NCBI GenBank assembly: GCA_964596355.1
Contig: CAZQTD010000002.1
Span: 24,929-88,928, forward strand
Length of the DNA stretch: 64,000 nt
From: an uncultured Gammaproteobacteria bacterium
GTDB lineage: Bacteria > Patescibacteriota > Microgenomatia > UBA10105 > UBA927
Reading direction: 5' to 3'
The notes under the pieces were generated by a model that saw only the letters and a program-made list of their open reading frames with translations, had not been told where the DNA came from and searched no databases. Below, in pieces: positions 23,397 through 63,842 of this stretch. The first letter of the stretch is position 1, and each line of letters opens with the position of its first letter. The position numbers and the translations under genes were made by a program.

Positions 23397-23408
23397 CATT
23401 TTACACCC

Positions 23409-37750: not shown

Positions 37751-37814
37751 ATATGAATCATTTAGAGGTTGGAGGTGTGGGTTGAGAATAGTATAGAAGA
37801 TACATAATTTTTTC

Positions 37815-40980: not shown

Positions 40981-40983
40981 ATT

Positions 40984-41943: not shown

Positions 41944-41950
41944 CGCTGCT

Positions 41951-43063: not shown

Positions 43064-43067
43064 ACAT

Positions 43068-44609: not shown

Positions 44610-45358
44610 AACAACCGTTTTTGTCCATCGTCATCCCTGCATACAATGAAGAAACGAATATTCGCTTAGGCGCGCTTGATAAGGTGTCCAGGTATCTGGA
44701 GCACCAAACATACAGAAAGGAAGTTATTGTGGTTGATGACGGCTCGACCGATGCGACAGGGGATCTCCTTGACGATTTTGTCCAAACGAATAAAGACTTT
44801 CGCGTTATCCACAAGGCTCACAGTGGAAAAGCCGGCACGGTGATAGAGGGTGTGTTGGCGGCAAAAGGAGAACTGGTGCTGTTTACCGATCTAGATCAGG
44901 CAACGCCGCTTCATGAACTAGAACGTTTGCTGCCGTATTTTGCCAGCGGATATGACATTGTTATCGGTTCAAGGAATGCAAGGCGTGAAGGAGCGCCCGT
45001 TACACGCGTCATAATGGCGAAAGGATTTATGATGCTTCGCGCGCTCTTTCTGGGACTTCGAGGAATTACTGACACGCAGTGCGGATTTAAAGCGTTCCGG
45101 CGGGAAGTAGCAGTGTCAATTGTTCGAAACCTCAAGCTCTACGGACATGGCGGCCAAGCGACCGGTTCGATGGTAACCGCAGGATTTGATATAGAGGTGC
45201 TTTTTGTTGCGAAAAAAAAGAAATACAAAATTAAAGAAGTTCCTGTCGAGTGGCACTATGTGGAAACGAGGAGAGTTAGCCCGCTAAAAGATTCTTTATT
45301 CGGACTTGTGGATATGATAAAAATCCGCGTGAATGCGTGGCGGGGGCTCTATCGGTAG
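44606..45358 (+). CDS. GT2 polyprenol-phosphate glycosyltransferase (Dpm1-like)
   Basis: SIVIPAYNEE, VVDDGSTD and DLDQATP (DxD). 4-nt overlap with the preceding GT-C gene. Confidence 0.8.
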   Translation: MKQPFLSIVIPAYNEETNIRLGALDKVSRYLEHQTYRKEVIVVDDGSTDATGDLLDDFVQTNKDFRVIHKAHSGKAGTVIEGVLAAKGELVLFTDLDQATPLHELERLLPYFASGYDIVIGSRNARREGAPVTRVIMAKGFMMLRALFLGLRGITDTQCGFKAFRREVAVSIVRNLKLYGHGGQATGSMVTAGFDIEVLFVAKKKKYKIKEVPVEWHYVETRRVSPLKDSLFGLVDMIKIRVNAWRGLYR

Positions 45359-45366
45359 ATTAGCGT

Positions 45367-48034: not shown

Positions 48035-49570
48035 ATGGCAAAAAAGACCGCGCATGTTCCCCTTTTTTCAATTGCCATCATTATTTTTGCCGTCTTCATT
48101 GTGCTCATTCCCCTCATCCGACGCGGTTTTTTCGTTTCCGATGACGGCGAATGGATGATTATCAGGTTATCCGCCTTCTATCAGGCGTTTCGGGAGGGGC
48201 AGTTTCCGGTCCGATTTCTCGGCAGGCTAAACAACAGTTATGGCTATCCGGTCGCAAATTTTTTGTATCCCGGGTTTTTGTATATTGGTTCCGTTTTGCA
48301 TGCGATAGGCTTCTCGTTTGTCGACAGCGTCAAACTCATTCTCGCGGGTTCGGTCATCGGCGCTACAATATTTTTGTACTTATGGCTTCGGACATTTTTT
48401 ACTCCACGCATAAGTGCCGCAGGCGTTTTAAGTTTTGTGTTTGCCCCGTACCTTCTCCATGATATGTACAAGCGGGGCTCCGTAGGTGAGGTGTTGGCGA
48501 TATGTTGGGCGGCAATGGGTTTATACGCTATCGACTCGAAAAAGTCATGGTTGTTTTCACTCGCTCTGGCACTTCTTATCGTCAGTCATAACTCATTGGC
48601 ACTTCTTTTCAGCGGGTTTTTCCTGTTGTATCTCATGTGGCTGCGGCGGATAAACGATTTTCTCTATCCATATTTGTTAGGAGTTGGGATGACAACCTTT
48701 TTCTGGTTGCCAGCGATTATTGAGCAAACCTATGTGGTTTTCCGATCTGCTACCGTAGCAAATCCATCTGAATATTTACTCAAGGGGCTCGAGATTTCGC
48801 GTGTCGGTTTGGCGTTTGTTGTCTTCGCACTCATCCTCATGATAAAACATGAGGTAAAACAACGGGTGCCTTTTTTTATTTGCGTGCTTTGTGGCATCGT
48901 TATCCTTACCCTCCCTATAAGCGCTCCGGTTTGGAAGCTTACAATTTTAAAGACATATGTGCAGTTTCCTTTTCGATTTCTTTCTCTTGGACTTTTTGTT
49001 GGGCCGTGGATCGTTGCTTTTGCCTTGCAGAGACTACGCGGGGGTTGGCGCGTGGCCGCAACAGTTCTCATCGCGATCCTGTGGCTGCATAGCGTCGGCG
49101 ATGCGTTCCGGTCAATCCGTTTTACGCAGGAGGTCGAAGGGTACTACACAACCAATGAGTCAACAACGACGGTACATGATGAATACATGCCTCGGTGGGT
49201 TGTTATGAAGCCAAAGACACGTCCGCGCGAGCGAATGGAGTTTATTAACGGAAGCGGACGGTTCGATTATAGAACAGTGAGCACTCAACTTATTGATGCG
49301 ACTGTTGACGCTCATACAGATAGTATCATTCAAATTAATACAATCTATTATCCTGGTTGGGGAGCAAGCCTTAATGACAGAAAAGTTGTTATAGATTATA
49401 ACAATGATGCGGGAGTGATGCGCATCGCTGTGCCCAAGGGAACATATCGTCTGATTGTGGCATTTCGCGAAACCGTATCGCGGTTTGCCGCAGACGTCGT
49501 TTCAATTATTGCATTCATCCTGTTTCTTGTGTACGCGAGATCTTCGCAAGTGAGGAAGTATCCGGTATGA
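48035..49570 (+). CDS. PTPS-related/YfhO-like polytopic membrane glycosyltransferase (paralog 1)
   Basis: SDDGEWMIIRLSAFYQAFREGQFPVRF...YGYPVANFLYPGF N-terminal block is paralogous to the next gene. Multi-TM with a C-terminal extracytoplasmic domain. Confidence 0.55.
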   Translation: MAKKTAHVPLFSIAIIIFAVFIVLIPLIRRGFFVSDDGEWMIIRLSAFYQAFREGQFPVRFLGRLNNSYGYPVANFLYPGFLYIGSVLHAIGFSFVDSVKLILAGSVIGATIFLYLWLRTFFTPRISAAGVLSFVFAPYLLHDMYKRGSVGEVLAICWAAMGLYAIDSKKSWLFSLALALLIVSHNSLALLFSGFFLLYLMWLRRINDFLYPYLLGVGMTTFFWLPAIIEQTYVVFRSATVANPSEYLLKGLEISRVGLAFVVFALILMIKHEVKQRVPFFICVLCGIVILTLPISAPVWKLTILKTYVQFPFRFLSLGLFVGPWIVAFALQRLRGGWRVAATVLIAILWLHSVGDAFRSIRFTQEVEGYYTTNESTTTVHDEYMPRWVVMKPKTRPRERMEFINGSGRFDYRTVSTQLIDATVDAHTDSIIQINTIYYPGWGASLNDRKVVIDYNNDAGVMRIAVPKGTYRLIVAFRETVSRFAADVVSIIAFILFLVYARSSQVRKYPV

Positions 49571-51219
49571 AAAAGATCGCAGCGGGAAGCATTCTAGTCA
49601 TTATTCTTTCGGTATGGGCAATCCGTCCAATTGCGATGCCGGGTTTTTTCCCGATGCATGACGACACCCAAGTCGGGCGCGTCATTGCCATGGGCAGAGC
49701 GCTTCGTCTGGGGCAATTCCCGGTTCGCTGGGTGCTGGATTTGGGATATGGGTACGGATATCCTATTTTTAATTTTTACGGTCCGCTCCCATACTATTTT
49801 GGAGGCGCGCTTTATGCGTTGGGTGTTCCGGGGCTTATTGCAACCAAGGCCATGTTTATCGCAGGAGTCGTTGGCGCGGGGATTGCTATGTTTGGCGCGT
49901 CTTCGGCGTTTTTGGGAGTAACCGGCGCTCTTGTTGCTGCTATTTTTTATGTGTATGCACCTTATCACGCGGTTCAAGTTTACGTGCGAGGAGCTGTCGG
50001 AGAATTTTGGTTCCTTATATTTCTACCGATCATTCTATCGGGCATAGCGAAACGCCGCGTTCTGGTTACCGGTTTGGGGCTTGCCGGAGCAATACTTTCC
50101 CATACGGTGTTAGGATATGCGACAACGCTTATGTATGTTCTCGGTGTGATGTTCGCTGCCATTGTCGCGCGCAGGGGGAGCACCGTTGACGCCGGCAGCG
50201 TGTGGCGTCTGTTGACTGCGCTTGCCCTTGCGCTGGGCGGTACTGCGTTCTTTTGGCTTCCTGCGGCAGCCGAGATGCGCTTCACAAGTGTCGTGGGCCA
50301 GGTGGGGAAGACCGCAAACTTTTCTGATCATTTTGTCTGCTTGCCGCAGTTGTGGGATTCTTTGTGGGGGTACGGCGGGTCGGCAATCGGGTGCGTTGAC
50401 GGGCTTTCGTTTAAACTTGGCAAGCTCCACAGTGTGCTGTCGCTGATAGCGGTAGCGTTGTGGTTTATTTTTGGGAGAATGCGGCATACAACGAGTTCGC
50501 GCCTCGTTTATGTATCAATGGTTGTTGCCATGATTGGTATGTTTTTTGTGCTTTCTGTAAGCGAGCCGGTATGGATGCTTATGCCTGGCTTTGCCTACAT
50601 TCAATACCCGTGGAGATTTCTAACCTACGCCATTGCTGCCGCGTCGCTTCTCGTTGGCAGCCTTTGCATCTATATAAAGCACCGCTTGATCAAGTGGGCT
50701 ACGGCAACAGTACTTTGTATATCGGTCATAGCGCTGCAGCAAAAAGTTTTCGTGCCCCAATATATCTACAGCAGAAATTTGAACGCGTTTGAATCCGATA
50801 CGTATCTTCGGTATGAGGTGTCAAAAATATCCGACGAATATTTGCCACGTGACATTATTCGGCCGAAAAGCGAGAAGCAGGTTATCCGTGATACAATACG
50901 CGGACCGGATACATCGCGGGTTAAAATTGAGAGGGATACGGATACATCGCTTCGATTTTCGATAATAACCGACAACCCGCAGGTCGTTGAGGTCATGCGG
51001 ACATATTTTCCCGGGTGGCGATATAGGGTGAATGGCAAATACGTGGAACCTATGCTGTCACACGGATTGCCGCGTCTTGCGGTCCCTGCTGGATATAGCG
51101 TGATTGAAATAGACTTTGTCGATACACCGGTTAGAACAATTGGGAACGCCGTGTCTGTCCTGACAGCGGCAGTTCTTATTACCATTTATGGGAAAAAAGC
51201 AAAAAAACCCATCACTTAA
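49567..51219 (+). CDS. PTPS-related/YfhO-like polytopic membrane glycosyltransferase (paralog 2)
   Basis: HDDTQVGRVIAMGRALRLGQFPVRW...YGYGYPIFNFYGPLPYY aligns residue-for-residue with the N-terminal block of the preceding gene. 4-nt overlap. Confidence 0.55.
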   Translation: MKKIAAGSILVIILSVWAIRPIAMPGFFPMHDDTQVGRVIAMGRALRLGQFPVRWVLDLGYGYGYPIFNFYGPLPYYFGGALYALGVPGLIATKAMFIAGVVGAGIAMFGASSAFLGVTGALVAAIFYVYAPYHAVQVYVRGAVGEFWFLIFLPIILSGIAKRRVLVTGLGLAGAILSHTVLGYATTLMYVLGVMFAAIVARRGSTVDAGSVWRLLTALALALGGTAFFWLPAAAEMRFTSVVGQVGKTANFSDHFVCLPQLWDSLWGYGGSAIGCVDGLSFKLGKLHSVLSLIAVALWFIFGRMRHTTSSRLVYVSMVVAMIGMFFVLSVSEPVWMLMPGFAYIQYPWRFLTYAIAAASLLVGSLCIYIKHRLIKWATATVLCISVIALQQKVFVPQYIYSRNLNAFESDTYLRYEVSKISDEYLPRDIIRPKSEKQVIRDTIRGPDTSRVKIERDTDTSLRFSIITDNPQVVEVMRTYFPGWRYRVNGKYVEPMLSHGLPRLAVPAGYSVIEIDFVDTPVRTIGNAVSVLTAAVLITIYGKKAKKPIT

Positions 51220-51925
51220 TGTTGTCATCCCTGTATACAACGAGGAAGCGGAGCTTGAAAAAAGCGTTAGAACGCTTCACAGATACCTTAGCAATCACTT
51301 GACTGATTTTGACTGGAGGATAATGATCGCTGATAACGCCTCGACGGATTTGACGCTTGCGATCGCCAAGCGCGTAAGCCGCACGCTTTCGCGGACTGGT
51401 GCCATTCATTTGAAAGAAAAGGGCAGAGGTCGTGCGGTGAAGCGCGTCTGGTGCACTGCCGACAGCGATATTTGCGCCTACATGGATGTAGATCTTTCCA
51501 CCGATCTTAAGCACTTTCCGCCGCTTGTCAGAAGCCTTCTTCGGGGGTATGACATTGCAATCGGCACACGAAACGCGCGCGGATCCCGCGTCTATGGTAG
51601 AGGGTTGTTGCGCACGCTGACGTCAAAAATATACATCGCTCTCATCAAATTGTTCTTTTGGGTAAACTTTAGCGACGCGCAGTGTGGATTTAAAGCCGTC
51701 ACCAGAAGAGTCGTGAAAGAAGTAATTCCTAAAATACACGACAACGGATGGTTTTTTGACTCCGAGCTTTTAATCGTGGCAGAAAAAAGCGGGTACAGAA
51801 TATATGAAGAGCCTGTTACCTGGACAGACAATCCCGGATCCACGGTGCGCGTCCTTAAAACCGCACAGGGAGACATAGAAGGGTTATATAGACTCTATAT
51901 TACTCGCCCGTGGAGACGTAAGTAG
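51188..51925 (+). CDS. GT2 polyprenol-phosphate glycosyltransferase (Dpm1-like)
   Basis: LNVVIPVYNEE, IADNASTD and DVDLSTD motifs. 32-nt overlap with the upstream gene. Confidence 0.75.
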   Translation: MGKKQKNPSLNVVIPVYNEEAELEKSVRTLHRYLSNHLTDFDWRIMIADNASTDLTLAIAKRVSRTLSRTGAIHLKEKGRGRAVKRVWCTADSDICAYMDVDLSTDLKHFPPLVRSLLRGYDIAIGTRNARGSRVYGRGLLRTLTSKIYIALIKLFFWVNFSDAQCGFKAVTRRVVKEVIPKIHDNGWFFDSELLIVAEKSGYRIYEEPVTWTDNPGSTVRVLKTAQGDIEGLYRLYITRPWRRK

Positions 51926-51926
51926 C

Positions 51927-53372
51927 ATGCAAGACATTGATATTGCTCTTGTCAAGAAGCGGTCAATTAAAGGAATTATCGCGCTGACGTCTCGGACGTT
52001 TTTTCTTCAGATCATCGCATTTAGCGCGACATTTCTTTTGACGATTTTTTTAAGCCCGCAGGTTTTTGGAATTTTTTACGTCGTAAGCGCAATCATTGCG
52101 TTTTTAGGGTACTTTTCCGATGTGGGTCTGGCCGCTGCTCTCATTCAGAAAAAGGAACAGCTCACAAAAGATGATTTAACTACGACGTTTACGATTCAGC
52201 AGATATTGGTGGGGAGCGTGGTCGTTATTGCCTTTGTTGCTTCCGGTACTGTCGGGAGATTCTATGGGCTCGATACTTCCGGCGTTTGGCTTTTCCGCGC
52301 GCTGGTTGCCGCGTTTTTTCTCTCGTCACTTAAGACCATTCCTTCTGTGCTTTTGGAGCGCGGGCTAGAGTTTAATAAACTTATCATCCCAAATATCCTT
52401 GAGACTATTGGGTTTTATGTCGTTGCGGTTCTTTTGGCATGGAGAGGATTTGGAGTGGCAAGTTTTACGTGGGCAGTTATGACGCGTGCGGTCGTCGGAT
52501 TGATTGCTATGTATGTGGTATCGCCATGGCGTGTGACATTGGGTCTTAAACGAAGCGTTGCAAAAAAATTATTACGATTTGGACTGCCGTTTCAACTTAA
52601 CTCATTTCTCGCGCTTCTTAAGGACGATCTTTTGACAGTATTTTTGGGCAAGATTCTCACGTTCAGTGAAGTAGGATATATTGGCTGGGCTAAAAAATGG
52701 GCGGAAGTGCCGCTGCGGCTGATCATGGACAGCGTCATCCGCGTGACGTTTCCGGCGTTTTCCAGACTGCAGGAGTCCAAAGCTCTGCTTGGCCGCGCCA
52801 TAGAAAAAACACTCTTCGGTGTGTCAGTAGCCATGATGCCGGTTTCCATAGGGTTGTTGTTTTTCATGCGGCCGTTTATCGCGGTAATTCCTCGTTATGG
52901 CAAATGGGAGCCTGCGGTGCTGTCGTTCTATTTTCTTGCCTTCGCCTCGGTTGTCGCGAGCCTTTCCACACCGTTGACTAACGCGCTAAATGCAGTCGGG
53001 AAGATTCGATTGACGCTTCTTCTTATGGCCATGTGGACGGTAATGACATGGATTCTGGTTACTGTTTTCGTTCGATTGTTCGGTTTTACCGGCGTCTCTG
53101 TTGCGCTATTTGCTGTTACGCTGACGATTGGATTGGTGGTGAGTCTGGCAAAGAGAATCGCGGATTTTTCTTTTTTGGCAAGTGTACGAAATCCGGTTTT
53201 CGGCGGTCTCGTCCAAGCGGCCCTTTATGGTGCTTTTATTGAAGCAATTCCACAGAAACTCCCCTGGCTGATACTGCTTGCTGCCAGCGGTGTTATACTG
53301 TATATGGGAATTGTATGGTTAATCGATAAGGACCGTATTAACAGCCTTATCGGAGATTTTTGGCACCGATGA
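51927..53372 (+). CDS. Wzx-like polysaccharide/oligosaccharide flippase (MOP superfamily)
   Basis: 481 aa with 12-14 TM helices. The N-terminal pattern (KGIIALTSRTFFLQIIAFSATFLL...DVGLAAALIQ) is typical of polysaccharide biosynthesis protein flippases. Confidence 0.75.
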   Translation: MQDIDIALVKKRSIKGIIALTSRTFFLQIIAFSATFLLTIFLSPQVFGIFYVVSAIIAFLGYFSDVGLAAALIQKKEQLTKDDLTTTFTIQQILVGSVVVIAFVASGTVGRFYGLDTSGVWLFRALVAAFFLSSLKTIPSVLLERGLEFNKLIIPNILETIGFYVVAVLLAWRGFGVASFTWAVMTRAVVGLIAMYVVSPWRVTLGLKRSVAKKLLRFGLPFQLNSFLALLKDDLLTVFLGKILTFSEVGYIGWAKKWAEVPLRLIMDSVIRVTFPAFSRLQESKALLGRAIEKTLFGVSVAMMPVSIGLLFFMRPFIAVIPRYGKWEPAVLSFYFLAFASVVASLSTPLTNALNAVGKIRLTLLLMAMWTVMTWILVTVFVRLFGFTGVSVALFAVTLTIGLVVSLAKRIADFSFLASVRNPVFGGLVQAALYGAFIEAIPQKLPWLILLAASGVILYMGIVWLIDKDRINSLIGDFWHR

Positions 53373-54277
53373 ATTCCATCAGCGTTGTCATTTCCGCTTA
53401 CAACGAAGAGGCAAAACTGCCCGGCTGCTTACGTTCTGTTTCGTGGGCAGATGAGATTATTGTGGTTGACAACGAATCGACGGACGGGACCGCTGGCGTG
53501 GCAAAACGAGCCGGTGCGGCAGTGTATCGCTGCAAAAACAACCCAATGCTTAATGTAAATAAAAATTATGGATTCAACAAAGCAAGCGGCGACTGGATTT
53601 TGAACCTCGATGCTGACGAAGAAATCCCCAAGGAGCTTGCCCGGGAAATCCGTCATGCCATAGCGGCGCCCAATAACATCATGGGATTCTGGATTCGGAG
53701 AAAAAACATCATATTCGGCAAATGGATTAGTCACGGACTGTGGTGGCCGGACAGGCAAATGAGGCTGTTTCGAAGAGGGCGCGGCGCGTTTCCGTGCAAG
53801 CACGTGCATGAATATATCGAAGTTGAAGGTCGAACAGGGGAACTGGCGCATCCGTTTGTACACTATAACTATGATACGATTTCACAGTTCATCCGCAAAA
53901 TGGACGCAATTTATACAGAAAATGAAGTTCAGCGGCTGATTGATTCAGGGCACCGTCTCTTTTGGTTTGACGCGATACGGTTTCCGCTGTCTGATTTTGC
54001 CAAAATTTATTTCGCGCAGGAAGCGTATAAAGACGGACTGCATGGGCTAATTATCAGCATTCTACAGTCCTTTTATTCATTTGTGGTGTTCGCTAAATTA
54101 TGGGAGCGCAAACGCTTTGAAGAGCGAACCATTACACTTTCGTCCGTTAATAAAGAATTGAACCATGCACAAAAAGAACTGATGTACTGGTCGCTTACCT
54201 CGCAATTGAAAAACACACCGTCGCGTATCCAGCGGCTATGGGTAAGAATTCTTCGTTGGGTTGTTACTCGCTTATGA
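53360..54277 (+). CDS. GT2 glycosyltransferase
   Basis: ISVVISAYNEE, VVDNESTDGT and LDADE (DxD). Confidence 0.75.
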   Translation: MAPMNSISVVISAYNEEAKLPGCLRSVSWADEIIVVDNESTDGTAGVAKRAGAAVYRCKNNPMLNVNKNYGFNKASGDWILNLDADEEIPKELAREIRHAIAAPNNIMGFWIRRKNIIFGKWISHGLWWPDRQMRLFRRGRGAFPCKHVHEYIEVEGRTGELAHPFVHYNYDTISQFIRKMDAIYTENEVQRLIDSGHRLFWFDAIRFPLSDFAKIYFAQEAYKDGLHGLIISILQSFYSFVVFAKLWERKRFEERTITLSSVNKELNHAQKELMYWSLTSQLKNTPSRIQRLWVRILRWVVTRL

Positions 54278-55238
54278 TATGAAAGCCGTAAGTATCGTCA
54301 TCGTCAATTGGAATGGCAAAGAACACATCATTCCTTGTCTTTCATCCGTTGTCAAGATGAAAACATCCAATTGGGCGGTCAATATTATTGTGGTTGATAA
54401 TGCCTCGATCGACGGTTCTGTGGGCGCGATTCGCAAACGATTTCCCTGCGTCACTGTTATTGAGCTTCCGACGAATCAAGGATTTAGCGGGGGAAATAAC
54501 GTAGGCATCCAATTTGCGTGCACACGCACGTGCGACTATATCTGGCTTCTTAATAACGACACCACCGTTCATCCGTCGGCACTGCGCGAGCTAATAAACG
54601 CGTTTAATGATAAACGCGTCGGTATTGCAGGATCTAAAATATATTTTTCCCCTGGGCGGGAATATCATAATTCGCGCTATACATCCGCGCAAAAAGGCAA
54701 GGTGCTCTGGTACGCGGGCGGGCGCATTGACTGGGCGAATGTGTACGCATCCCATAGGGGCGTTGATGAGGTTGATTGCGGACAGTACGATACGCCGCAA
54801 GACACAGATTTCGTGACAGGGTGCTCTATGTGCATTCGTAGAAACGTGATAGACCGGATCGGATTATTTGACGAGAGATATTATTTGTATCTTGAAGATC
54901 TGGATTATTGCATGAGGGCGAAAAACGCCGGCTTTCGTCTTGTGTACGCGCCTGATTCTGTTGTCTGGCATGCCAATGCGGCATCAACTGCCAAGCCCGG
55001 GAATTCCCTCCATCAGTATTACATGACGCGAAACAGATTGCTTTTCGGAATGACGTACGCATCGACTCGCACAAAGGTTGCGCTTTTTTGTGAAGCGGTA
55101 AGGCAGGTGGTGTCTGGATCAGTTATTCAAAAAAGGGCAGTTTTAGATTATGCATTTGGAAAATTTGGGAATAGATTCGTATGGAAGTATGCTAAACAGG
55201 CTGTATCAGTCAGCCGGCGGACAGATAGAAACAGATAA
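54261..55238 (+). CDS. GT2 glycosyltransferase (WbbL/rhamnosyltransferase-like)
   Basis: VSIVIVNWNG, VVDNASIDGS, GFSGGNN and the LEDLDYC motif, typical of GT2 rhamnosyl/galactosyl transferases. Confidence 0.75.
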   Translation: MLLAYDMKAVSIVIVNWNGKEHIIPCLSSVVKMKTSNWAVNIIVVDNASIDGSVGAIRKRFPCVTVIELPTNQGFSGGNNVGIQFACTRTCDYIWLLNNDTTVHPSALRELINAFNDKRVGIAGSKIYFSPGREYHNSRYTSAQKGKVLWYAGGRIDWANVYASHRGVDEVDCGQYDTPQDTDFVTGCSMCIRRNVIDRIGLFDERYYLYLEDLDYCMRAKNAGFRLVYAPDSVVWHANAASTAKPGNSLHQYYMTRNRLLFGMTYASTRTKVALFCEAVRQVVSGSVIQKRAVLDYAFGKFGNRFVWKYAKQAVSVSRRTDRNR

Positions 55239-55245
55239 TCTGATT

Positions 55246-56025
55246 ATGAAGGGAACAACAAAACCGGCGGTCACAGCAGTTGTGATTGCTAAAAACGAGG
55301 AACCCCGCATTACAGAATGCTTGAAGCGGCTCGCATGGACGGATGAACGGATCGTCATCGATAATGGATCGACAGACAGGACAATAACGCTTGCCAAACG
55401 ACAGCGAGCCCGCGTGGTACGGATCAAAGAACGAAATTTCTCACTTCTTCGGAACAGAGGCAAGAGGGAAGCGCACTCGTCATGGATTCTCTACGTGGAT
55501 GCGGACGAATGGGTTACTGACGACCTCCAAGAAGAAATTCTCAAAACCGTTTCCAACTACAAGCCGGGAGCTCCGATTGCATATTACATACAGCGCAAAA
55601 ATTACTATCTGGGCGCGCTTTGGCCAACGAAGGATAAAATGCAGCGATTGTTTCTTAAATCTGCACTTTGTGGTTGGAAAGGAATCGTTCATGAAACAGC
55701 AGAGGTTGTTGGAGAGACAGGAGTGTTGAAAGAACCCTTGGTGCACAGGACCCACAGGACATTAGAAGAAATGGTTGCAAAAACCAATGAATGGTCGCAG
55801 ATGGAAGCAGAGCTTCGGTTCGCTTCCGGCCATCCGCCGGTGGTATGGTGGCGTTTGATACGAGTCATAATGACAGGATTTTATCGGTCTTTTATTGGTG
55901 AAGACGGTTGGAAAGCAGGTACCATTGGCTGGATAGAAAGCATTTATCAGGCGTTCAGCATGTTTATCACGTACGCTAAGCTGTGGGAGTTACAAAAAGC
56001 GAGGGGAAAAACCATTGAAGGATGA
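55246..56025 (+). CDS. GT2 glycosyltransferase
   Basis: Start refined to the ATG at 55246 (MKGTTKPAVTAVVIAKNEE). Has IDNGSTD and VDADE motifs. Confidence 0.7.
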   Translation: MKGTTKPAVTAVVIAKNEEPRITECLKRLAWTDERIVIDNGSTDRTITLAKRQRARVVRIKERNFSLLRNRGKREAHSSWILYVDADEWVTDDLQEEILKTVSNYKPGAPIAYYIQRKNYYLGALWPTKDKMQRLFLKSALCGWKGIVHETAEVVGETGVLKEPLVHRTHRTLEEMVAKTNEWSQMEAELRFASGHPPVVWWRLIRVIMTGFYRSFIGEDGWKAGTIGWIESIYQAFSMFITYAKLWELQKARGKTIEG

Positions 56026-58342
56026 CATGAATAGTGTGCGAAAGAACTTGTGGTCGATTCTTTTGATCGTCGCGGTGTGGCTTATATTTTCTTCACCGTA
56101 CATTTTGAAAGGCCTTGTTCCGTTTCCGTCGACGTATTTGGTTACCTTTTTTCCGCCGTGGAGCGCAACGTACGGAATGCCGGTCAAAAACTCCGCGATG
56201 CCGGACGTCATTACACAAATCTATCCATGGAAGACATTGACCATCGAACGCTGGAAAGCCGGACAAATCCCCCTATGGAACCCGTATAGTTTTTCCGGGA
56301 CTGCTCACGCCGCCAACTACCAAACCGCCGTGTTTTCACCGGTGCAAGCGTTATTTTTTTTACTTCCTTTTATAGATGCGTGGAGCATTATGATTCTCAT
56401 TCAGCCCCTTCTTGCCGGGATATTCATGTATGTATTGTTGCGAAGTTTCAATCGATCGGGCGCAGCGAGTGTTATCGGAAGTCTTGCATTTATGTTTTGC
56501 GGGTTCATGGTTACATGGATGGCATATGGAACGCTTGGCTACGCTGCGCTTTGGCTGCCGCTTATTTTCTACGCAATTCATAGCGGGTGGGAAAGACCCA
56601 CTGTCTGGAAATACGCTATGGTTAGTATCGGTCTTGCATTATCCTTTCTTTCGGGCCACTTTCAGATAAGCCTTTATGTTTCGCTACTATCTTGCGGTTA
56701 CATCGCTTATCGAATACTTCGGACAAAGGAATATGCGACGGGTCTAAGATTTGCCCTGTTTTTTCTGCTTGGCCTCCTCATTGCAGCGCCCCAATTATTA
56801 TTGAGTTTTGATGCATATACCAAGTCGGTCAGGATGACGAATTATGTCAAGGCAGAGATCATTCCTTGGGAGTATCTTATTACGCTTCTTGCGCCTGATT
56901 TTTACGGCAATCCGGTCACCCGCAACGACTGGTTTGGACATTACGCGGAATGGGCAGGGTATATAGGCGTAGCTCCGCTTCTTTTGGCTTTGTTTTCTGT
57001 ATCCAAAAAAAGAAAACAAGATGAATGGTTTTTTATACTCTGCAGTGGTGCCGCCTTGCTGTTGGCGTTGCCGACTCCATTTACCGATTTTCTTTTCATG
57101 ATAAAACTTCCTGTACTGTCAACAAGCGCCGCATCAAGAATTATTATTCTTGTCAGTTTCAGCCTCGCGACGCTATCGGCATATGGCTTTGACCATTTGA
57201 ACGAAAGATGGAAAAAATGCACGCTTCTGCCGGTTTTTCGGTTTATACTTTTTGTATTGATTATCGTTGGGGGCATATGGATATACATGGTCGTCGCCCG
57301 TCCGCTCCCTGCGGATAAGCTAGCGATCGCCAAACGAAATTTTATCCTCCCCACAGCGTTGACCGTCGCGTCGCTTGCCATATTCATCGCGGGTTTTGTG
57401 AAGAAGGCTGGCATGTCGCTTCTTGCGCCGTTTCTTCTGTGTCTGGTTGTTGCGTTTGACGTCAGTAGATTTGCGACAAAATGGATGCCGTTTGACCCAA
57501 AAGAATATATGTACCCAAAGGAAAAATCTCTTCAATTCCTTGAGTCTCATGCAGGATATGACCGAGTGTTTGGAAATATCGGGAATGAAGTGGCATCGAT
57601 GTTTCATCTGTCTGTTGTGGAAGGGTATGACGCGATGTATCAGGGGAGATATGCTGAATTTATCAACGCGGCATCCAAAGGGAAGGTCATTGAAGGTGAT
57701 CGGTCTGTGGTTCAATTTGATAAACATGGACTCTATAAAAAGGAAGCGCTGCAGCTTTTGGGTGTTCGGTATATATACCACAGGGTGAGGGACGGCAGGG
57801 CGCCATGGGTATTTCCATACTGGGAATACGGCGCCATGCGGCAGGTATATAACGATTCTGTTTATTGGATTTACGAATATACCGACGCCTATCCGCGGGC
57901 GTTTTTAGCGTCATCATACACGGTAGCAGTTGATAAGCAGGATATCATTGATGCGCTGTTTGCACCGGAGTTTGACCGCAGGGACACGCTTGTTCTTGAG
58001 GAAACTCCTCATTTGGAGCCTCAACCCGGACCGGGACAAGCCACGATACGGTCATATACCCCCAACGAGGTGATAATAGAGACGGAATCTTCCGTGCCGA
58101 AATTGCTGTTTTTATCTGACGTCTTTGACTCCGGCTGGAAGGCGTATATCGACGGAACGGCGTCACATCTGTATCGAGCGGATTATGATTTTCGTGCGGT
58201 TGCCGTGCCGGCGGGCAGTCACACGGTCCGATTTGTCTACTCCCCAACCTCTTTACGTATTGGAATACTGCTTTTTAGTATCGCGCTTGCAGGTATAATC
58301 GGATTACTTGGTAAAACAATCTATGAACATCGGGTTATATAG
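56015..58342 (+). CDS. YfhO-family GT-C glycosyltransferase (paralog A)
   Basis: 775 aa with more than 12 TM helices. N-terminal block PDVITQIYPWKTLTIERWKAGQIPLWNPYSFSGTAHAANYQTAVFSP and a large C-terminal extracytoplasmic domain. Confidence 0.65.
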   Translation: MKDDMNSVRKNLWSILLIVAVWLIFSSPYILKGLVPFPSTYLVTFFPPWSATYGMPVKNSAMPDVITQIYPWKTLTIERWKAGQIPLWNPYSFSGTAHAANYQTAVFSPVQALFFLLPFIDAWSIMILIQPLLAGIFMYVLLRSFNRSGAASVIGSLAFMFCGFMVTWMAYGTLGYAALWLPLIFYAIHSGWERPTVWKYAMVSIGLALSFLSGHFQISLYVSLLSCGYIAYRILRTKEYATGLRFALFFLLGLLIAAPQLLLSFDAYTKSVRMTNYVKAEIIPWEYLITLLAPDFYGNPVTRNDWFGHYAEWAGYIGVAPLLLALFSVSKKRKQDEWFFILCSGAALLLALPTPFTDFLFMIKLPVLSTSAASRIIILVSFSLATLSAYGFDHLNERWKKCTLLPVFRFILFVLIIVGGIWIYMVVARPLPADKLAIAKRNFILPTALTVASLAIFIAGFVKKAGMSLLAPFLLCLVVAFDVSRFATKWMPFDPKEYMYPKEKSLQFLESHAGYDRVFGNIGNEVASMFHLSVVEGYDAMYQGRYAEFINAASKGKVIEGDRSVVQFDKHGLYKKEALQLLGVRYIYHRVRDGRAPWVFPYWEYGAMRQVYNDSVYWIYEYTDAYPRAFLASSYTVAVDKQDIIDALFAPEFDRRDTLVLEETPHLEPQPGPGQATIRSYTPNEVIIETESSVPKLLFLSDVFDSGWKAYIDGTASHLYRADYDFRAVAVPAGSHTVRFVYSPTSLRIGILLFSIALAGIIGLLGKTIYEHRVI

Positions 58343-59345
58343 TCCGTATTTGGATTCGTTAAGCGGTGGTGAGCGGTATGTATTGACCATCGCGTCTCAC
58401 TGGTCGAAAACTCATACCGTGTCGATTTTTTGGAATGATCCTGCAATCACAACGATTGCAGGCAAGCGCTTTAATGTGGATTTAAGAACTGTTGCCGTCA
58501 AGCCCAATATATTTGTGCGAGGAAACTACTTCGGGAAATTGATTGAATCTCGCCGGTATGACTGCATCGTTTTTTTAAGCGACGGCAGCATTCCAATAAG
58601 TTTTGCGCGGAGAAATATTTTGCATTTTCAAGTTCCGTTTCAGCGCGTATTGTTTCCGCCGTGGAAGCGTGCGCTGTATAAACATATTGTATGCAATTCT
58701 CGCTTTACGAAAGACCATATCGATCCTGCTATTGGATCTCGTGCCCGCGTGATTTATCCACCGGTAGATGTGGAGCCTCAAAAGACGGTAAAAAAAGAAC
58801 CCATCATTTTGTCTGTGGGGAGGTTTTCTGAACTTAAAAATCAACGGGTGCTCATATCGGCTTTCAAGGAAGGGTACACGGCAGGCCGTTTTCCCAGGTG
58901 GAAGCTGGTTATGGCTGGGGGACTGCTGCCCAGTGATAGGAAGTATTACGAATCCTTGCGCCTGCAGGCGAGGCAATTGCCCGTCACATTTTATCCGAAC
59001 ATTGCGTACGAAGATCTTTGGAAGCTTTACGCAACGTCTGCGATTTTTTGGCATGCTGCTGGTTTCGGGCAAACGAAGCCGGAAAATATGGAGCACTTCG
59101 GCATTACGACGGTGGAAGCTATGGCAGCCGGCTGCATCCCGGTCGTTGTAAGTGCCGGAGGATTGAAAGAGATCGTGACGCATGGCAAAGACGGGTATCT
59201 GTGGAAAAATCCCAAGGAGCTCATTGAGTATTCGCTTGCCGCAATGACAGGAGAAAAGGCGGCTTTCCAAAAGAGAGCACAAACAAGAGCGTTAGATTTT
59301 AACGTTATGAAGTTTTGCCAGTCTTTTGACAGACTCCTTGTATGA
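58323..59345 (+). CDS. GT4 (GT-B fold) glycosyltransferase
   Basis: GGERYVLTIASHW N-terminal motif and C-terminal EHFGITTVEAMAAGCIPVV...GG..E, typical of group 1 (GT4) transferases. Start at MNIGLY. Confidence 0.65.
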   Translation: MNIGLYSPYLDSLSGGERYVLTIASHWSKTHTVSIFWNDPAITTIAGKRFNVDLRTVAVKPNIFVRGNYFGKLIESRRYDCIVFLSDGSIPISFARRNILHFQVPFQRVLFPPWKRALYKHIVCNSRFTKDHIDPAIGSRARVIYPPVDVEPQKTVKKEPIILSVGRFSELKNQRVLISAFKEGYTAGRFPRWKLVMAGGLLPSDRKYYESLRLQARQLPVTFYPNIAYEDLWKLYATSAIFWHAAGFGQTKPENMEHFGITTVEAMAAGCIPVVVSAGGLKEIVTHGKDGYLWKNPKELIEYSLAAMTGEKAAFQKRAQTRALDFNVMKFCQSFDRLLV

Positions 59346-61633
59346 AACGCCGGCTTTTTTTCCTTCACATTTGCTTGTTTGGTGTTGCAGCGCTGTTATT
59401 TTTTTATAAAACACTGTTTTTTGGGCTTTTGCCGGTTCCTTCAGACGCGCTCGTCGGTTTGTATCATCCGTGGCGGGACGCTTTTGCGCAGGAATATCCC
59501 CGCGGCATGCCGTTTAAGAACTTTTTGATTACCGATCCGGTCAGGCAGCAAATCCCGTGGCGGAAGCTTGCGGCGGACTCGTGGAAGCGGGGTGAGCCGC
59601 CGGCATGGAACCCAACTGCATTTTCTGGAACGCCGCTTGGCGCCAATGTTCAATCTGCCGCGTTTTACCCGCTCAACGTCTTGTTTTTGTTTTTGCCGTT
59701 TAGTGCGGCGTGGAGCGTCCTTATCCTTATCCAGCCGGTTATTGGCGGGATAGGCATGTTCCTTTATTTGGGTATGCTTGGCCTTGCAGCACCGGCAGCG
59801 ATGGTGGGCGCGATACTTTTTGGGTTTAGCGGTACTGCTGTAGCATGGATGACGTGGGGAACAATTGGACACGTTATGATGTGGACGCCGTTTGTCTTAA
59901 TTGCGGTCGAACGGCTTTTTTCTCCGTGTGACTATTCAAAGCACCGGCCGTTGTGGATTATACTGATAGCCGTTCTTTTTGTCCTTCAAATTACGGCGGG
60001 TCATCTGCAAGTTGCATTGTACTCAATAGGATTGGCGGCAATCTATGCTGTATGGAAATACACGATGAGCCCAAAAGATATGGTTCGCAAGCTACTGGGA
60101 TTTGCGCTGGCTTGCCTTAGTGCGCTTATTATTATCCTTCCGATACTTATTCCGCTTGTGAGGTTTCTAACAAGCACAAGTCGTCTGGCTGGAGCAAACT
60201 ACATGTCCGAAGGATTTTTTTTCCCACCAATCCACCTCATACAACTTATTGCGCCGGATTTTTTCGGGAACCCAGCAACGATGAATTATTGGGGGACGTG
60301 GAACTACGGTGAAATGGTGGCCTACGCGGGAGTTGGGGGCATTCTCTTTGCCCTTCTGGGCCTGACCGCATGGAAATCCAATACACACGTGCGGTTCTGG
60401 GCGTTCGTGGCCGGAGCTTCGGTAGTCCTAACTACCAAAAACCCTCTGACGCTTGCCGTCTATACGGCAAAAATTCCCATCCTTTCCTCTTTGCAGCCCA
60501 CGCGGCTTCTTATCATTTTTGATCCGGCGCTTGCCGTACTTGCCGCGATCGGGTTTGACAGATTTATCCGTGAGAAAACTCCGGCCGTACGGTATATCTG
60601 CGCGGGTATCGGGGGCATCATAGGTATTGCCGGGGTCATTGTTTCATACGCGCTTCTGACAACACGTGACGTTTTATTGCAGACCAATTATATGGTTGCA
60701 CGAAGAAATCTCATTATTCCCGCTGCCCTCCTTCTGGTGTCCGTTATTCTCATTGAGGCATATGAGCGATTGTTTATTATGAAACGGTTGAATTTTCTGA
60801 AAACCGCGATCGTTTACTGCCTCGTCGGCGTGATCATTGCAGACCTATTCCGATTCGGCTGGAAATTCTTGCCGTTTACCGATTCCAAACACTTTTTTCC
60901 GGAAACGCAGATAATCGCATTTTTTAAACGCCAGAAACAACCATTCCGGATTATGACGCTCGATGACCGCGTATTTCCTCCTGATGCGCAGGCGTATTAC
61001 GGCCTGTCTTCAGTGGGAGGATACGATCCGCTTAGATCCGCGCGGTACGAGCGATTCATCGCTGTTGTCGAACAGGATCGAAGCGATGTTGCGCCTCCGT
61101 ATGGATTTGAGAGGATAATCAATCCGAAAAACTACCGCTCACGGTTGTTTGATCTTTTGCGCGTCCGGTATCTTGTGAGTTTGGAAGACATACGCGACCG
61201 GCAATTTTCCCTCGTGTTTCAGGAAGGGCAAACGCGCGTATACGAATATACGCGCGCTTTGCCGCTGGGACATTTCGTAACAACGCTCCTGCCTGCTTCT
61301 CGTAATGATGCGGCGCTAACTGCGATGGTTTCCGATGATTTTGATCCGCGCAAGCACGCAGTGGTCGAGGGCTTGGGAAAAGACGCAGTGCTGTTTTTAT
61401 CCGAATCGGAAGATACGGTGAAGGTTGTTGGATACAGTCAAAATAACACACTATTTTCCACGCATACAAAGGAGCATAAGTTTTTGTCTACTGGACTTAT
61501 ATACGATCCGGGGCTTCGGGCAACGGTAGACGGCAAAGCGGCACGAGTTTACCGGACAAATTACGTATATTCTGGTATTATAGTCCCCAGCGGTGACCAC
61601 ACGGTCGCATTCACCTACAGACTCATTGATTGA
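59342..61633 (+). CDS. YfhO-family GT-C glycosyltransferase (paralog B)
   Basis: 763 aa. N-terminal block TDPVRQQIPWRKLAADSWKRGEPPAWNPTAFSGTPLGANVQSAAFYP aligns with the gene at 56015. Multi-TM. Confidence 0.65.
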   Translation: MKRRLFFLHICLFGVAALLFFYKTLFFGLLPVPSDALVGLYHPWRDAFAQEYPRGMPFKNFLITDPVRQQIPWRKLAADSWKRGEPPAWNPTAFSGTPLGANVQSAAFYPLNVLFLFLPFSAAWSVLILIQPVIGGIGMFLYLGMLGLAAPAAMVGAILFGFSGTAVAWMTWGTIGHVMMWTPFVLIAVERLFSPCDYSKHRPLWIILIAVLFVLQITAGHLQVALYSIGLAAIYAVWKYTMSPKDMVRKLLGFALACLSALIIILPILIPLVRFLTSTSRLAGANYMSEGFFFPPIHLIQLIAPDFFGNPATMNYWGTWNYGEMVAYAGVGGILFALLGLTAWKSNTHVRFWAFVAGASVVLTTKNPLTLAVYTAKIPILSSLQPTRLLIIFDPALAVLAAIGFDRFIREKTPAVRYICAGIGGIIGIAGVIVSYALLTTRDVLLQTNYMVARRNLIIPAALLLVSVILIEAYERLFIMKRLNFLKTAIVYCLVGVIIADLFRFGWKFLPFTDSKHFFPETQIIAFFKRQKQPFRIMTLDDRVFPPDAQAYYGLSSVGGYDPLRSARYERFIAVVEQDRSDVAPPYGFERIINPKNYRSRLFDLLRVRYLVSLEDIRDRQFSLVFQEGQTRVYEYTRALPLGHFVTTLLPASRNDAALTAMVSDDFDPRKHAVVEGLGKDAVLFLSESEDTVKVVGYSQNNTLFSTHTKEHKFLSTGLIYDPGLRATVDGKAARVYRTNYVYSGIIVPSGDHTVAFTYRLID

Positions 61634-62565
61634 TACGCGCTATGAAAAATCGACCGCTTACGATTTCTGTCGTCATTCCCAATTGGAATGGCCGAGTGCT
61701 GCTTGAACGCCATTTGCCCACAATAGTGGCCAGATCTGCGGTGGCGCGTGAGATTATTGTTGTTGATGACGGATCAACTGATGATTCATGCGAATTCGTT
61801 AAAAAAAATTACCCGAACATCGTAATTGTTCAAAAGCAAAAAAATGAGGGATTTGCATCTACTGTGAATATCGGTGTTAAGAAAGCCGCGAGCGAACTGG
61901 TATGTCTTTTAAATACCGACGTTCTGCCGGAAAAGGGGTATCTGGAAGCTGTTATACCGCATTTTGCCAACCCAAAGGTTTTTGCCGTCGGCAGTCTGGA
62001 TAAAAGTCATGAAGGAAACCGCGTCGTTGACCGCGGCCGGGGCCTATCTCGGTGGGAACGCGGGTTTTATATTCACAAGCGCGGAGACGTGAATAAATCA
62101 ACGACTGCATGGGTTGCCGGCGGAAGCGGAACATTCCGACGATCCGTGTGGCTGTCACTGGCAGGCATGGATACACTCTACAATCCGTTTTATTGGGAAG
62201 ATATTGATTTATCATACCGCGCGATTAAAGCAGGATATTCTCTCATATTTGAGCCGAAAAGCATTGTTCACCACATGCACACCGAAGGGGCAATAACGAA
62301 GCATTTTTCGCCTTGGGTAGTCAAACGGATTGCCTATAGAAATCAATTTATTTTCCACTGGAAAAACATATCCGATGGCGGCATCATCGTTTCACATCTG
62401 GCATGGTTACCCGTCCGTTTGATTCAGGCGTGCTTTCGCCTTGACACGGCGATAATCGTCGGATTTTTCGGAGCGCTTCTTCGATTGCCTCGCATTATAC
62501 CCAAACGGCTTGACGCCATCCGTCGCTGGAAACTTCCGGATGACGCGTGCGTGCTTCCAAAATGA
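61630..62565 (+). CDS. GT2 glycosyltransferase
   Basis: ISVVIPNWNG, VVDDGSTDDS and an EDIDLSYR motif. 4-nt overlap with the YfhO gene. Confidence 0.75.
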   Translation: MIRAMKNRPLTISVVIPNWNGRVLLERHLPTIVARSAVAREIIVVDDGSTDDSCEFVKKNYPNIVIVQKQKNEGFASTVNIGVKKAASELVCLLNTDVLPEKGYLEAVIPHFANPKVFAVGSLDKSHEGNRVVDRGRGLSRWERGFYIHKRGDVNKSTTAWVAGGSGTFRRSVWLSLAGMDTLYNPFYWEDIDLSYRAIKAGYSLIFEPKSIVHHMHTEGAITKHFSPWVVKRIAYRNQFIFHWKNISDGGIIVSHLAWLPVRLIQACFRLDTAIIVGFFGALLRLPRIIPKRLDAIRRWKLPDDACVLPK

Positions 62566-62573
62566 TTCTGCCG

Positions 62574-63842
62574 TTACAGTTGATAGGGTGATATTCCACT
62601 TTGGGTATAGAGGTAATAAAAATAGAGGTATGACTGGGGGTTTCCGTCAGAAAATCCTATGGTTTTCCCTTCCTTGATTGCCTGTTTTACCAACCTTCTA
62701 TCTTTCGTGAGGTTTCCCTCGGCCGCTAAGAAAAACTTCTGCGTGTTTGTGACTACGTAATACATCCAAAAGATCACTACTGCCGCCTTGGTCACAATTA
62801 ACTTCCGGGCCCATATCCAATGGCTAATATACGCAAGGATAATAATCGCGATATACAAATGGAGAGAAAAGTAATAATCGCTTATTTCGCCGCTATACGC
62901 AGTGAATAGTATCCACGGGACAATGAACCATAACAGCACAAGATAGCGAAGTTTCTTGGCATTATCGCCGGTATGACGCGTGCGGTGCAGGATAAAAAAC
63001 AGCGGGAGATAGAGAAAGCCGCTTGAGCGCAAGAATCCGTACGGGAATTCCAGTATGGATACGAACTTAATGAACGCATCGTGCGTGAGCTGAAAAAATC
63101 GCATCAGATGAAATCCATGATAGTACTGTCCAATATACGTGTTGATGGAGCCTGCACGCCGTCCGCCGGAATGCGCGTAATACAGCGCTTGAGGAATGAG
63201 GCCTGCGCCCAGGATGCATGCGGCAACTGCCAGATATGCTATTTTCGTTTTGTGAAAAGACACCAGCGGCAGCGATAACAGCGTGATGATAAGAAAAAAT
63301 AGTGACGTAACATGAATATGAAACGATAAGGCTAATACGAATCCCAGATAGAGAATGTGTTTGGGTTTTTCAGTTACTGCGCCGTACAAAAAATAGAGTA
63401 TGAGAAGTGAAAACGACGGGATGAAATTTACCGGCCACTGCGAGCGTTCAAAAAATATGATGTACGAGGAGAACGTGTAGATGCACGATGAGATGAGCGC
63501 AATGTTTTCATCAAACAGGCGCTTGGCTACATAATATAAGACAATGAAGTTGAATAGACCTGTGAAGCCGGCAAGAAGCGGAGAAGCGATGGGGTCAAGC
63601 TGCGTTATGGCGTAGAAAACAGCGACGAGATAGTAATAGAACGGGCCGATATAAATACCGCTGTTTGCTTTGGCCACCATGCCCACGAGGGGATATTTAT
63701 GTGCAACGAGAATTCTCACTGCCGCCCACGCGTTGTCAATTTGATCCCACGTAAACGATGCCCAGCGTTCCAAATGATAAAATCGAAAGAACAGGTGAAA
63801 CAGAAATAACAGAAACAAAAGGAAGAAATGCTTTTTATTCAT
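62574..63842 (-). CDS. polytopic GT-C-type glycosyltransferase (paralog of 43068-44609)
   Basis: 422 aa with more than 10 TM helices. WDQIDNAW after TM1 and a GIYIGPFYYYL block shared with the 43068 gene. Convergent with the + strand locus. Confidence 0.5.
   Translation of the reverse strand: MNKKHFFLLFLLFLFHLFFRFYHLERWASFTWDQIDNAWAAVRILVAHKYPLVGMVAKANSGIYIGPFYYYLVAVFYAITQLDPIASPLLAGFTGLFNFIVLYYVAKRLFDENIALISSCIYTFSSYIIFFERSQWPVNFIPSFSLLILYFLYGAVTEKPKHILYLGFVLALSFHIHVTSLFFLIITLLSLPLVSFHKTKIAYLAVAACILGAGLIPQALYYAHSGGRRAGSINTYIGQYYHGFHLMRFFQLTHDAFIKFVSILEFPYGFLRSSGFLYLPLFFILHRTRHTGDNAKKLRYLVLLWFIVPWILFTAYSGEISDYYFSLHLYIAIIILAYISHWIWARKLIVTKAAVVIFWMYYVVTNTQKFFLAAEGNLTKDRRLVKQAIKEGKTIGFSDGNPQSYLYFYYLYTQSGISPYQL

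Follow-up and report, generated by a model that had tools for sequence, protein, structure and literature searches.

The first characterized members of the YfhO family act in three-component systems, in which CsbB, GtcA and YfhO together glycosylate lipoteichoic acid in Bacillus subtilis and Staphylococcus aureus, and wall teichoic acid in Listeria monocytogenes (Lmo2550/Lmo1079). B. subtilis YfhO has about 12-13 transmembrane (TM) helices, the last two of which are separated by a large extracytoplasmic region (PMC5836110). The family is not specific to teichoic acids. In streptococci, Ser/Thr-rich protein regions are the targets of PgtC2, which works with GtrB in S. pyogenes and S. pneumoniae, and of PgfM1 and PgfM2, which are encoded with PgfS and PgfE in the pgf operon of S. 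mutans. Here we analyzed two genes of this family, YfhO1 and YfhO2, found in a 64,000-nucleotide stretch (hereafter the window) of contig CAZQTD010000002.1 from assembly GCA_964596355.1 (positions 24,929 to 88,928, forward strand), which belongs to a bacterium of the Candidate Phyla Radiation (CPR). With moderate confidence, we read both proteins as two of four YfhO-superfamily glycosyltransferases of the GT-C fold that use a polyprenyl-phosphate-linked donor in a conserved hybrid assembly line, leading to a surface glycoconjugate rather than to the decoration of teichoic acids.

A first-pass annotation, made from the DNA sequence, had described two large open reading frames (ORFs) of 775 and 763 aa with a GT4 gene between them, a GT2 gene behind and three GT2 genes in front, and had assigned both large proteins to the YfhO family. 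The ORF listing and Pfam searches reproduced this arrangement. Pfam profile PF09586 (YfhO), which has a curated gathering threshold of 28.5 bits, gave 74.9 bits for YfhO1 (E 6e-21) and 54.5 bits for YfhO2. NCBI already labels these proteins 'YfhO family'. The two paralogs align end to end with 30% identity (E 3e-94). More than 2000 homologs of YfhO1 were retrieved; the best 120 are 52-72% identical to it and all contain PF09586, and those with a name come from Woesebacteria, Gottesmanbacteria or Microgenomates. The sole NCBIfam match of YfhO1 was a weak one to PgfM2, confined to the C-terminal part, and when YfhO1 was searched against PDB sequences, chance matches alone came back (LRRC8C, E 0.14 or worse), with no solved relative. 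The NCBI gene model of YfhO1 starts at an ATG four codons after the TTG used here. A GAGGGG box lies 8 nt upstream of the TTG, thus either start is possible.

The sequence block proposed earlier as shared by the two proteins is real in both, but two of its spacings were wrong, so that the pattern as written matches neither. Once corrected (PW.{7}W..G..P.WNP..FSGT.{4}N.Q.A.F.P), it was found by regular expression in YfhO1, in YfhO2 and nowhere else in the window, and in 43 of the 71 sequences of the YfhO1 family alignment, which includes YfhO2. Within this block, W84, N85, P86, F89, G91, N97 and Q99 are invariant in the 71 sequences. Outside it, the invariant residues include Asp60 (771-aa numbering), H211/Q213, P290-D291 (in 'APDFYGNP'), E308, R371, R481, K485 and D535. 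YfhO2 retains every one of the invariant residues. The DXD-type motif of GT-C enzymes consists of one or more conserved acidic residues in an extracytoplasmic loop; Asp60 and Asp291 were the invariant acids considered for it. In the structural model, Asp60 sits at the N-terminus of helix 59-77, right behind TM1 in the first extracytoplasmic loop; by this GT-C paradigm it is a candidate catalytic or donor-binding residue.

The AlphaFold model of YfhO1, computed from the 71-sequence alignment (mean pLDDT 89.1, pTM 0.89), displayed a GT-C fold with a helical membrane core (residues 1-484), a large extracytoplasmic alpha/beta and beta-sandwich region (485-740) and a last TM helix (741-770). B. subtilis YfhO has been described with this same layout. 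In YfhO2, the core and the outside region are likewise present, but the protein stops directly after the beta domain and lacks the C-terminal TM helix; it therefore fits only part of the topology, with a large region between the last two TM helices, that YfhO1 follows in full. The top structural match of the YfhO1 model was AftD. AftA matched the models of both YfhO1 and unk550, one of two compact proteins described below, and ALG9, ALG12, STT3 and AglB were also among the structural matches. The C-terminal beta-sandwich domain resembles accessory domains of carbohydrate-active enzymes. Since the invariant residues are kept and the predicted fold and layout agree with the family, YfhO1 and YfhO2 are credible active GT-C glycosyltransferases. 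The profile scores, the GT-C model, the invariant loop-1 Asp and a synthase-like GT2 in the same operon make extracytoplasmic glycosylation dependent on a polyprenyl-phosphate-sugar the best reading for the two proteins.

The first-pass annotation had proposed two YfhO glycosylation steps. This is an undercount, because two further genes of the same conserved operon, unk511 and unk550, bring the number to four. Family alignments drawn from related loci were compared by hhalign. The unk511 and unk550 families proved to be paralogs (probability 100, E 2e-85), and their membrane cores matched those of YfhO1 and YfhO2 with probabilities of 97.7-98.8 (E 5e-17 to 2e-12), the best pair being unk511 and YfhO1 (98.8, E 5e-17). 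A separate hhalign comparison of the C-terminal beta-sandwich and TM segment gave probabilities of 97.6-99.0 between the compact proteins and YfhO (unk511 against YfhO1: 99.0, E 7e-18). Pfam detected nothing above threshold in the window copies of unk511 and unk550, PF10131 included, apart from a weak match of unk511 to the C-terminal part of the YfhO profile (E 0.026). PF10131 (PTPS_related), a member of the GT-C clan CL0111 listed without a function, does match 52 of 70 unk550 orthologs, even though the window copies fall below detection. The closest structures to the unk550 model were the protein O-mannosyltransferases Pmt4 and Pmt2. As hhalign homology extends over both the core and the C-terminal domain, the locus holds four YfhO-superfamily GT-C proteins by profile comparison, two full length and two compact ones without the central outside domain. 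The link between PF10131-like compact proteins and YfhO, through these two domains, appears not to have been described before. The PMT_2 proteins of the window were also considered as YfhO paralogs and rejected, as hhalign detected no relation to the YfhO group.

Upstream of Wzx, the conserved block encodes a small GT2, GT2dpm, as a candidate polyprenyl-phosphate-sugar synthase. Its best PDB relatives were the P. furiosus Dol-P-Man synthase (5mlz, E 9e-16), ArnC and GtrB, and polyprenyl-phosphate glycosyltransferases make up all of its top NCBIfam matches (PgfS, Dol-P-hexose transferase, AglJ, ArnC and PpgS). GT2dpm has no TM helix, hence it lacks the two C-terminal TM helices of CsbB/GtrB, and its gene is not adjacent to the YfhO genes. 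It is the single DPM1-like synthase of the block, giving a ratio of four GT-C proteins to one synthase; the earlier proposal that two distinct undecaprenyl-phosphate-sugars are used therefore finds no support. The Wzx protein matched the NCBIfam models for MOP flippases (E 1e-31) and O-glycosylation flippases (E 2e-26), in both cases below the equivalog cut-off. A Kyte-Doolittle scan of Wzx revealed 12 hydrophobic segments, some overlapping or close together, which is not to be taken as a count of TM helices. All GT2 and GT4 assignments exceeded the curated Pfam cut-offs. GT2_2 additionally matched an NCBIfam rhamnosyltransferase subfamily below its cut-off (E 8e-19). GT2_1 and GT2_3 were examined as possible second CsbB/GtrB-like synthases and rejected, since both are closest to GmaR and SunS and neither carries a C-terminal TM pair.

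The block comprises 11 genes in the order unk511, unk550, DPM1-like GT2, Wzx, GT2, GT2, GT2, YfhO1, GT4, YfhO2, GT2. ORFs starting at 53360, 54261, 55150, 56015, 58308, 59342 and 61630 are co-directional, and the spacing of neighboring genes between 48035 and 62565 is -50 to +1 nt, which is operon-like packing. In the Logan contig gene model, GT4 starts at 58323. Between 45 and 64 kb, a consensus scan for promoters and terminators detected no more of them than in shuffled sequence, so operon boundaries cannot be drawn from it.

The gene order is strictly conserved. A scan of GTDB species genomes detected about 48 loci with 41-60% identity in Gottesman-, Woese- and Levybacteria (Patescibacteria / Microgenomates). 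As the nearest relatives, at 43-72% identity over all searches, these groups confirm the earlier suspicion of a CPR genome. According to tblastn of the window proteins against related loci, the 11-gene order recurs in essentially every Microgenomates locus. All 11 genes are present in order in 25 of the loci with sufficient flank on both sides; the remaining five such loci differ solely by which small GT2 fills the synthase slot or by a missing last GT2. The position of GT4 is kept in 46 of 48 related loci, and GT2_4 follows YfhO2 in 38 of 48, several loci being truncated. Among the syntenic loci, L002 is part of a 1.0-Mb contig, and L047 and L049 belong to records titled chromosomes. Orthologs are 35-75% identical and paralogs about 30%, therefore the duplications are older than the split of these candidate phyla. 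A variable island of the O-antigen or capsule type was considered and rejected because of the strict synteny across related loci. Wzx and this conservation, both overlooked by the first-pass annotation, point to the assembly of a defined core glycan rather than to an optional decoration. Among the papers searched, none joined YfhO with CPR, Patescibacteria or Microgenomates, and nothing relevant turned up on the CPR envelope in general. The family call itself is not new, but the conserved 11-gene block with four YfhO-superfamily members appears to be undescribed.

Genes expected in related pathways were also searched for. In the window, the Pfam scan took in the majority of ORFs with at least 150 aa. 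No match among them was to the teichoic acid backbone and export families (TagF/TarL, LtaS, TagGH, TagO), in line with what had been noted before, or to the LCP family. Wzy_C/EpsG, Wzz, Bac_transf and Glycos_transf_4 had no match in these ORFs or in the recurrent flanking genes of relatives, and LCP, an initiating transferase, Wzy and teichoic genes were not seen in the flanks of related loci. Thus, of the Wzx/Wzy pathway, the locus contains Wzx, and Wzy, a chain-length regulator and an initiating phosphoglycosyltransferase were not found in it. No STT3/AglB-family gene is present. The sole GtrA domain of the window is fused to a GT2 (41861-43063) and lies outside the conserved block. The missing teichoic genes are less puzzling than the first-pass annotation implied, given that YfhO enzymes are not teichoic-specific.

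Compared with CsbB/GtcA/YfhO, the locus has in common PF09586, a multi-TM core followed by a large outside region and one last TM helix, an operon-encoded GT-A polyprenyl-phosphate-sugar synthase (GT2dpm) and presumed transfer outside the membrane. However, it has four paralogs per synthase instead of a 1:1 ratio, a Wzx/MOP flippase in place of the small GtrA-type flippase, which is not in the block, five extra soluble glycosyltransferases, two compact GT-C proteins, and no teichoic genes in view. The streptococcal pgf operon is similar in that two YfhO-domain paralogs and a GT2 synthase occur together, and the window encodes candidate Ser/Thr/Pro-rich acceptors. In contrast to our locus, pgf comes without Wzx or a set of soluble glycosyltransferases and its acceptor adhesins are cluster-encoded; sequence likeness to YfhO1 is limited to the weak C-terminal match. 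Mycobacterial arabinogalactan and lipoarabinomannan synthesis (AftA-D, EmbA-C, decaprenyl-phosphate-arabinose) offers a parallel of several paralogous GT-C enzymes sharing one lipid-phosphate donor and acting on a flipped glycan started in the cytoplasm. The AftD/AftA structural matches, the GlfT2/rhamnosyltransferase-like GT2_2 and the upstream rmlABCD genes add to this parallel. The GT-C families nevertheless differ, with no relation at the sequence level, as does the type of donor synthase. Finally, cytoplasmic glycosyltransferases, a flippase, a DPM1-like synthase and outside GT-C enzymes are also the components of lipid-linked oligosaccharide pathways (ALG3/9/12 with Dol-P-Man; Haloferax AglJ/G/I/E, AglR, AglS and AglB), to which the ALG9, ALG12, STT3 and AglB structural matches and the resemblance of GT2dpm to AglJ and Dol-P-hexose transferases also point. 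There is no STT3/AglB gene, and the GT-C proteins belong to the YfhO / PF10131 branch; the likeness is an analogy of pathway design and not evidence of descent.

The presence of one synthase for four GT-C proteins, together with Wzx and five soluble glycosyltransferases, is best fitted by a hybrid assembly line. In such a line, the five soluble GT2/GT4 enzymes would build a lipid-linked oligosaccharide on the cytoplasmic face, and Wzx would flip either this oligosaccharide or the monosaccharide donor. The DPM1-like GT2 would load polyprenyl phosphate with one sugar. Outside the membrane, each of the four GT-C paralogs might add the GT2dpm sugar at a different position, or transfer the glycan to the final acceptor. 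Such a line would yield a conserved glycoconjugate of the cell surface, be it a polymer linked to the wall or membrane or the glycan of a glycoprotein. Several points weigh against this proposal. The type of donor, the sugars, the sequence of steps, what Wzx does, and the identity of acceptor and product are inferred, and the YfhO1 and unk550 structures are both predictions. Catalytic residues of YfhO have never been mapped experimentally in the literature, and the role of the loop-1 Asp is assigned by analogy. The modest Pfam scores indicate that YfhO1 and YfhO2 are distant from the characterized Firmicute enzymes. AglJ is, in haloarchaea, the initiating enzyme of a monophosphate-linked oligosaccharide, and GT2dpm could likewise initiate such an oligosaccharide; the substrate of Wzx could be either the oligosaccharide or the monosaccharide donor. 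Moreover, no initiating phosphoglycosyltransferase, polymerase, ligase or GtrA-type flippase was found in the conserved block or its flanks, which leaves the lipid-linked intermediate and the final transfer step unaccounted for.

In a bolder reading, the operon might be a bacterial line of the ALG/arabinogalactan type making a class-wide glycopolymer that replaces teichoic acids in these reduced cells, with the four GT-C proteins acting in series from one polyprenyl-phosphate sugar and one of them performing en bloc transfer or polymerization; we regard this elaboration as doubtful. It is still less likely, in our estimation, that one or more of the four YfhO-like proteins stand in for the missing Wzy, WaaL or LCP, using the polyprenyl-(di)phosphate oligosaccharide flipped by Wzx and working as oligosaccharyltransferase, polymerase or ligase. 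Such a role would account for the lack of a polymerase or ligase among the genes in view, and the best structural matches include oligosaccharyltransferases, but to our knowledge neither en bloc transfer nor polymerization has ever been shown for the YfhO / PF10131 branch. An unlikely alternative that deserves attention is protein O-glycosylation, in which the YfhO paralogs, alone or with unk511 and unk550, would attach single sugars from a polyprenyl-phosphate-sugar directly to disordered linkers, rich in Ser/Thr, in proteins that are secreted or anchored in the membrane. YfhO-family enzymes are tied to this process experimentally in streptococci, where the two paralogs of the Pgf operon have distinct effects. 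The only NCBIfam match of YfhO1 is to one of these (PgfM2), GT2_1 and GT2_3 are nearest to the protein and peptide glycosyltransferases GmaR and SunS, the unk550 model is nearest to Pmt4 and Pmt2, and Lamin-tail (31780-32634) and CAP-domain (35161-36147) proteins with candidate linkers are encoded in the window. However, the genes for these candidate acceptors lie at a distance of over 15 kb, and their products might just as well be substrates of the many PMT/PMT_2 enzymes nearby, the accessory-like beta-sandwich fits a glycan acceptor at least as well, and Wzx and the five soluble glycosyltransferases would be superfluous for adding monosaccharides to proteins.

Classical glycosylation of teichoic acids, as performed by CsbB/GtcA/YfhO in B. 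subtilis, S. aureus and L. monocytogenes, would require backbone genes elsewhere in the genome. This is the function of the first characterized family members, but we consider it very improbable here: the teichoic families are missing from the scanned ORFs and from the flanks of relatives, the four GT-C proteins, Wzx and five soluble glycosyltransferases far exceed a decoration module, and the CPR proteins, with Pfam scores of 55-75 bits and no match to an NCBIfam equivalog, are remote relatives of those from Firmicutes. Least probable of all is that the proteins are transporters or inactive scaffolds merely resembling YfhO. In favor of this, the YfhO assignments in the literature are all genetic, with no direct enzymology for any YfhO; the invariant residues and predicted fold speak for active enzymes. 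The hybrid assembly line thus remains the reading that we favor.

Features of the window discussed in the text (aa, amino acids; E, expectation value).
Feature	Position	Strand	Description and basis
Upstream sugar-nucleotide/glycosylation genes	36397..46506	+	RmlA, RmlC-like, RmlB, RmlD, Ugd, UXS/epimerase-like, GT2-GtrA fusion, PMT_2, GT2, GT87-like (Pfam)
PMT_c	46526..48028	+	PMT_2-type GT-C; Pfam PMT_2 E 1e-8
unk511	48035..49570	+	unk550 paralog, second compact YfhO-superfamily protein, 511 aa; hhalign
unk550	49567..51219	+	Compact YfhO-superfamily / PF10131-like GT-C protein, 550 aa; hhalign, orthologs
GT2dpm	51188..51925	+	Candidate DPM1/ArnC/GtrB-like polyprenyl-phosphate-sugar synthase, 245 aa; PDB and NCBIfam matches
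Wzx	51927..53372	+	Wzx/MOP-family flippase; Pfam Polysacc_synt_3 E 3e-49
GT2_1	53360..54277	+	Cytoplasmic GT2, GmaR-like; Pfam; C-terminal amphipathic motif in common with GT2_3
GT2_2	54261..55238	+	Cytoplasmic GT2, GlfT2/rhamnosyltransferase-like; Pfam; PDB galactofuranosyltransferase E 1e-10
GT2_3	55150..56025	+	Cytoplasmic GT2, GmaR/SunS-like subtype; Pfam; best PDB relatives GmaR (E 1.5e-13), SunS
YfhO1	56015..58342	+	YfhO-family GT-C glycosyltransferase; 775 aa from TTG, 771 aa from ATG 56027 (NCBI gene model)
Asp64 codon of YfhO1 (Asp60 in 771-aa model)	56204..56206	+	'MPDVITQ'; candidate catalytic or donor-binding Asp
YfhO1 conserved loop-1 block	56225..56341	+	Regular expression match, aa 71-109
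GT4	58308..59345	+	Cytoplasmic GT4 (GT-B fold) between both YfhO genes; Pfam Glycos_transf_1 E 7e-28
YfhO2	59342..61633	+	YfhO-family paralog, 763 aa; PF09586 54.5 bits, E 9e-15
YfhO2 conserved loop-1 block	59555..59671	+	Regular expression match, aa 72-110
GT2_4	61630..62565	+	Cytoplasmic GT2, closes conserved block; Pfam Glycos_transf_2 E 6e-21
PMT_d	62574..63842	-	PMT_2-type GT-C, convergent with operon; Pfam PMT_2 E 2e-9

The first 36 kb of the window contain housekeeping genes (Suf, PFOR, Lon, aminoacyl-tRNA synthetases, SecA, RuvAB, a release factor and FtsEX). The sugar-nucleotide and glycosylation genes that follow are taken as context; the related loci, which end about 10 kb upstream of YfhO1, give a partial view of their conservation. 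Other GT-C genes flank the block: PMT_2 genes at 43068, 46526 and 62574, a GT87-like gene at 45367 and a PMT gene (PF02366) just beyond the window end (L068, 1813-3462). Thus at least nine GT-C-type genes, including the four YfhO-like ones, lie within about 25 kb, and similar crowding is seen in related genomes. The recurrent flanks of relatives mainly consist of PMT/PMT_2-like GT-C proteins (49 ORFs in 30 loci), methyltransferases and DUF2079. The PMT_c position, upstream of unk511, is conserved in Gottesman/Woese-type loci and not in Levybacteria-type loci, where one extra YfhO-like paralog takes its place; the counterpart of PMT_d lies between YfhO2 and GT2_4 in some relatives.

Extra YfhO-like paralogs, 27-33% identical to YfhO1, occur beside the block in many relatives (L007, L008, L019, L021, L024, L029, L031, L033, L050 and others). 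Membrane proteins of 870-930 aa from Eubacterium and Planctomycetota metagenome-assembled genomes (L052, L055, L056, L059, L060) are 23-31% identical to YfhO1/2 by BLAST; they mostly score below the Pfam YfhO profile and may be unrecognized branches of the superfamily. Plasmid matches to YfhO were distant 'YfhO family' genes of Bacteroides and Microvirga. Many Microgenomates loci (L007, L010, L011, L016-L018 and others) come from records titled 'uncultured Gammaproteobacteria bacterium', evidently a placeholder or a wrong label.

The Lamin-tail protein (plus strand, 284 aa) has a signal peptide and a C-terminal membrane anchor, and contains a Pro/Thr/Ser-rich linker of about 70 aa. With 57% S+T in a 30-aa stretch, the linker is a candidate for heavy O-glycosylation by nearby GT-C enzymes. 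The CAP/SCP-domain protein, also on the plus strand, has a P/A/T-rich linker and C-terminal TM segments and could likewise be a glycoprotein substrate. A DegT/ArnB-type aminotransferase and a 236-aa GT2 (22221-24119, plus strand), together with Ugd, a UXS/ArnA-like enzyme, the GT2-GtrA fusion and an ArnT-like PMT_2 (39682-44609, plus strand), resemble an ArnBCT-like polyprenyl-phosphate-aminopentose route with its parts at two separate sites. A PIG-L family GlcNAc de-N-acetylase (725-1513, plus strand) beside the Suf genes may have a part in the metabolism of glycoconjugates or thiols.

For the time being, the practical gain is small, as the proteins were already annotated 'YfhO family', the acceptor is not readable from sequence and the organisms are intractable; nor is a YfhO operon mechanistically surprising. 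CPR bacteria nonetheless represent a large share of bacterial diversity, almost none of them have been cultured, and their envelope chemistry is essentially unknown. With its gene order kept in three candidate phyla, the 11-gene operon marks out what is probably a core structure of the CPR cell surface. The finding also widens the YfhO superfamily by a compact PF10131-like form, and four enzymes on one lipid-sugar synthase bear on how GT-C proteins diversify their acceptor specificity. Altogether, the conserved operon names genes for heterologous expression to find this surface structure, and thus gives a concrete entry to CPR envelope chemistry.

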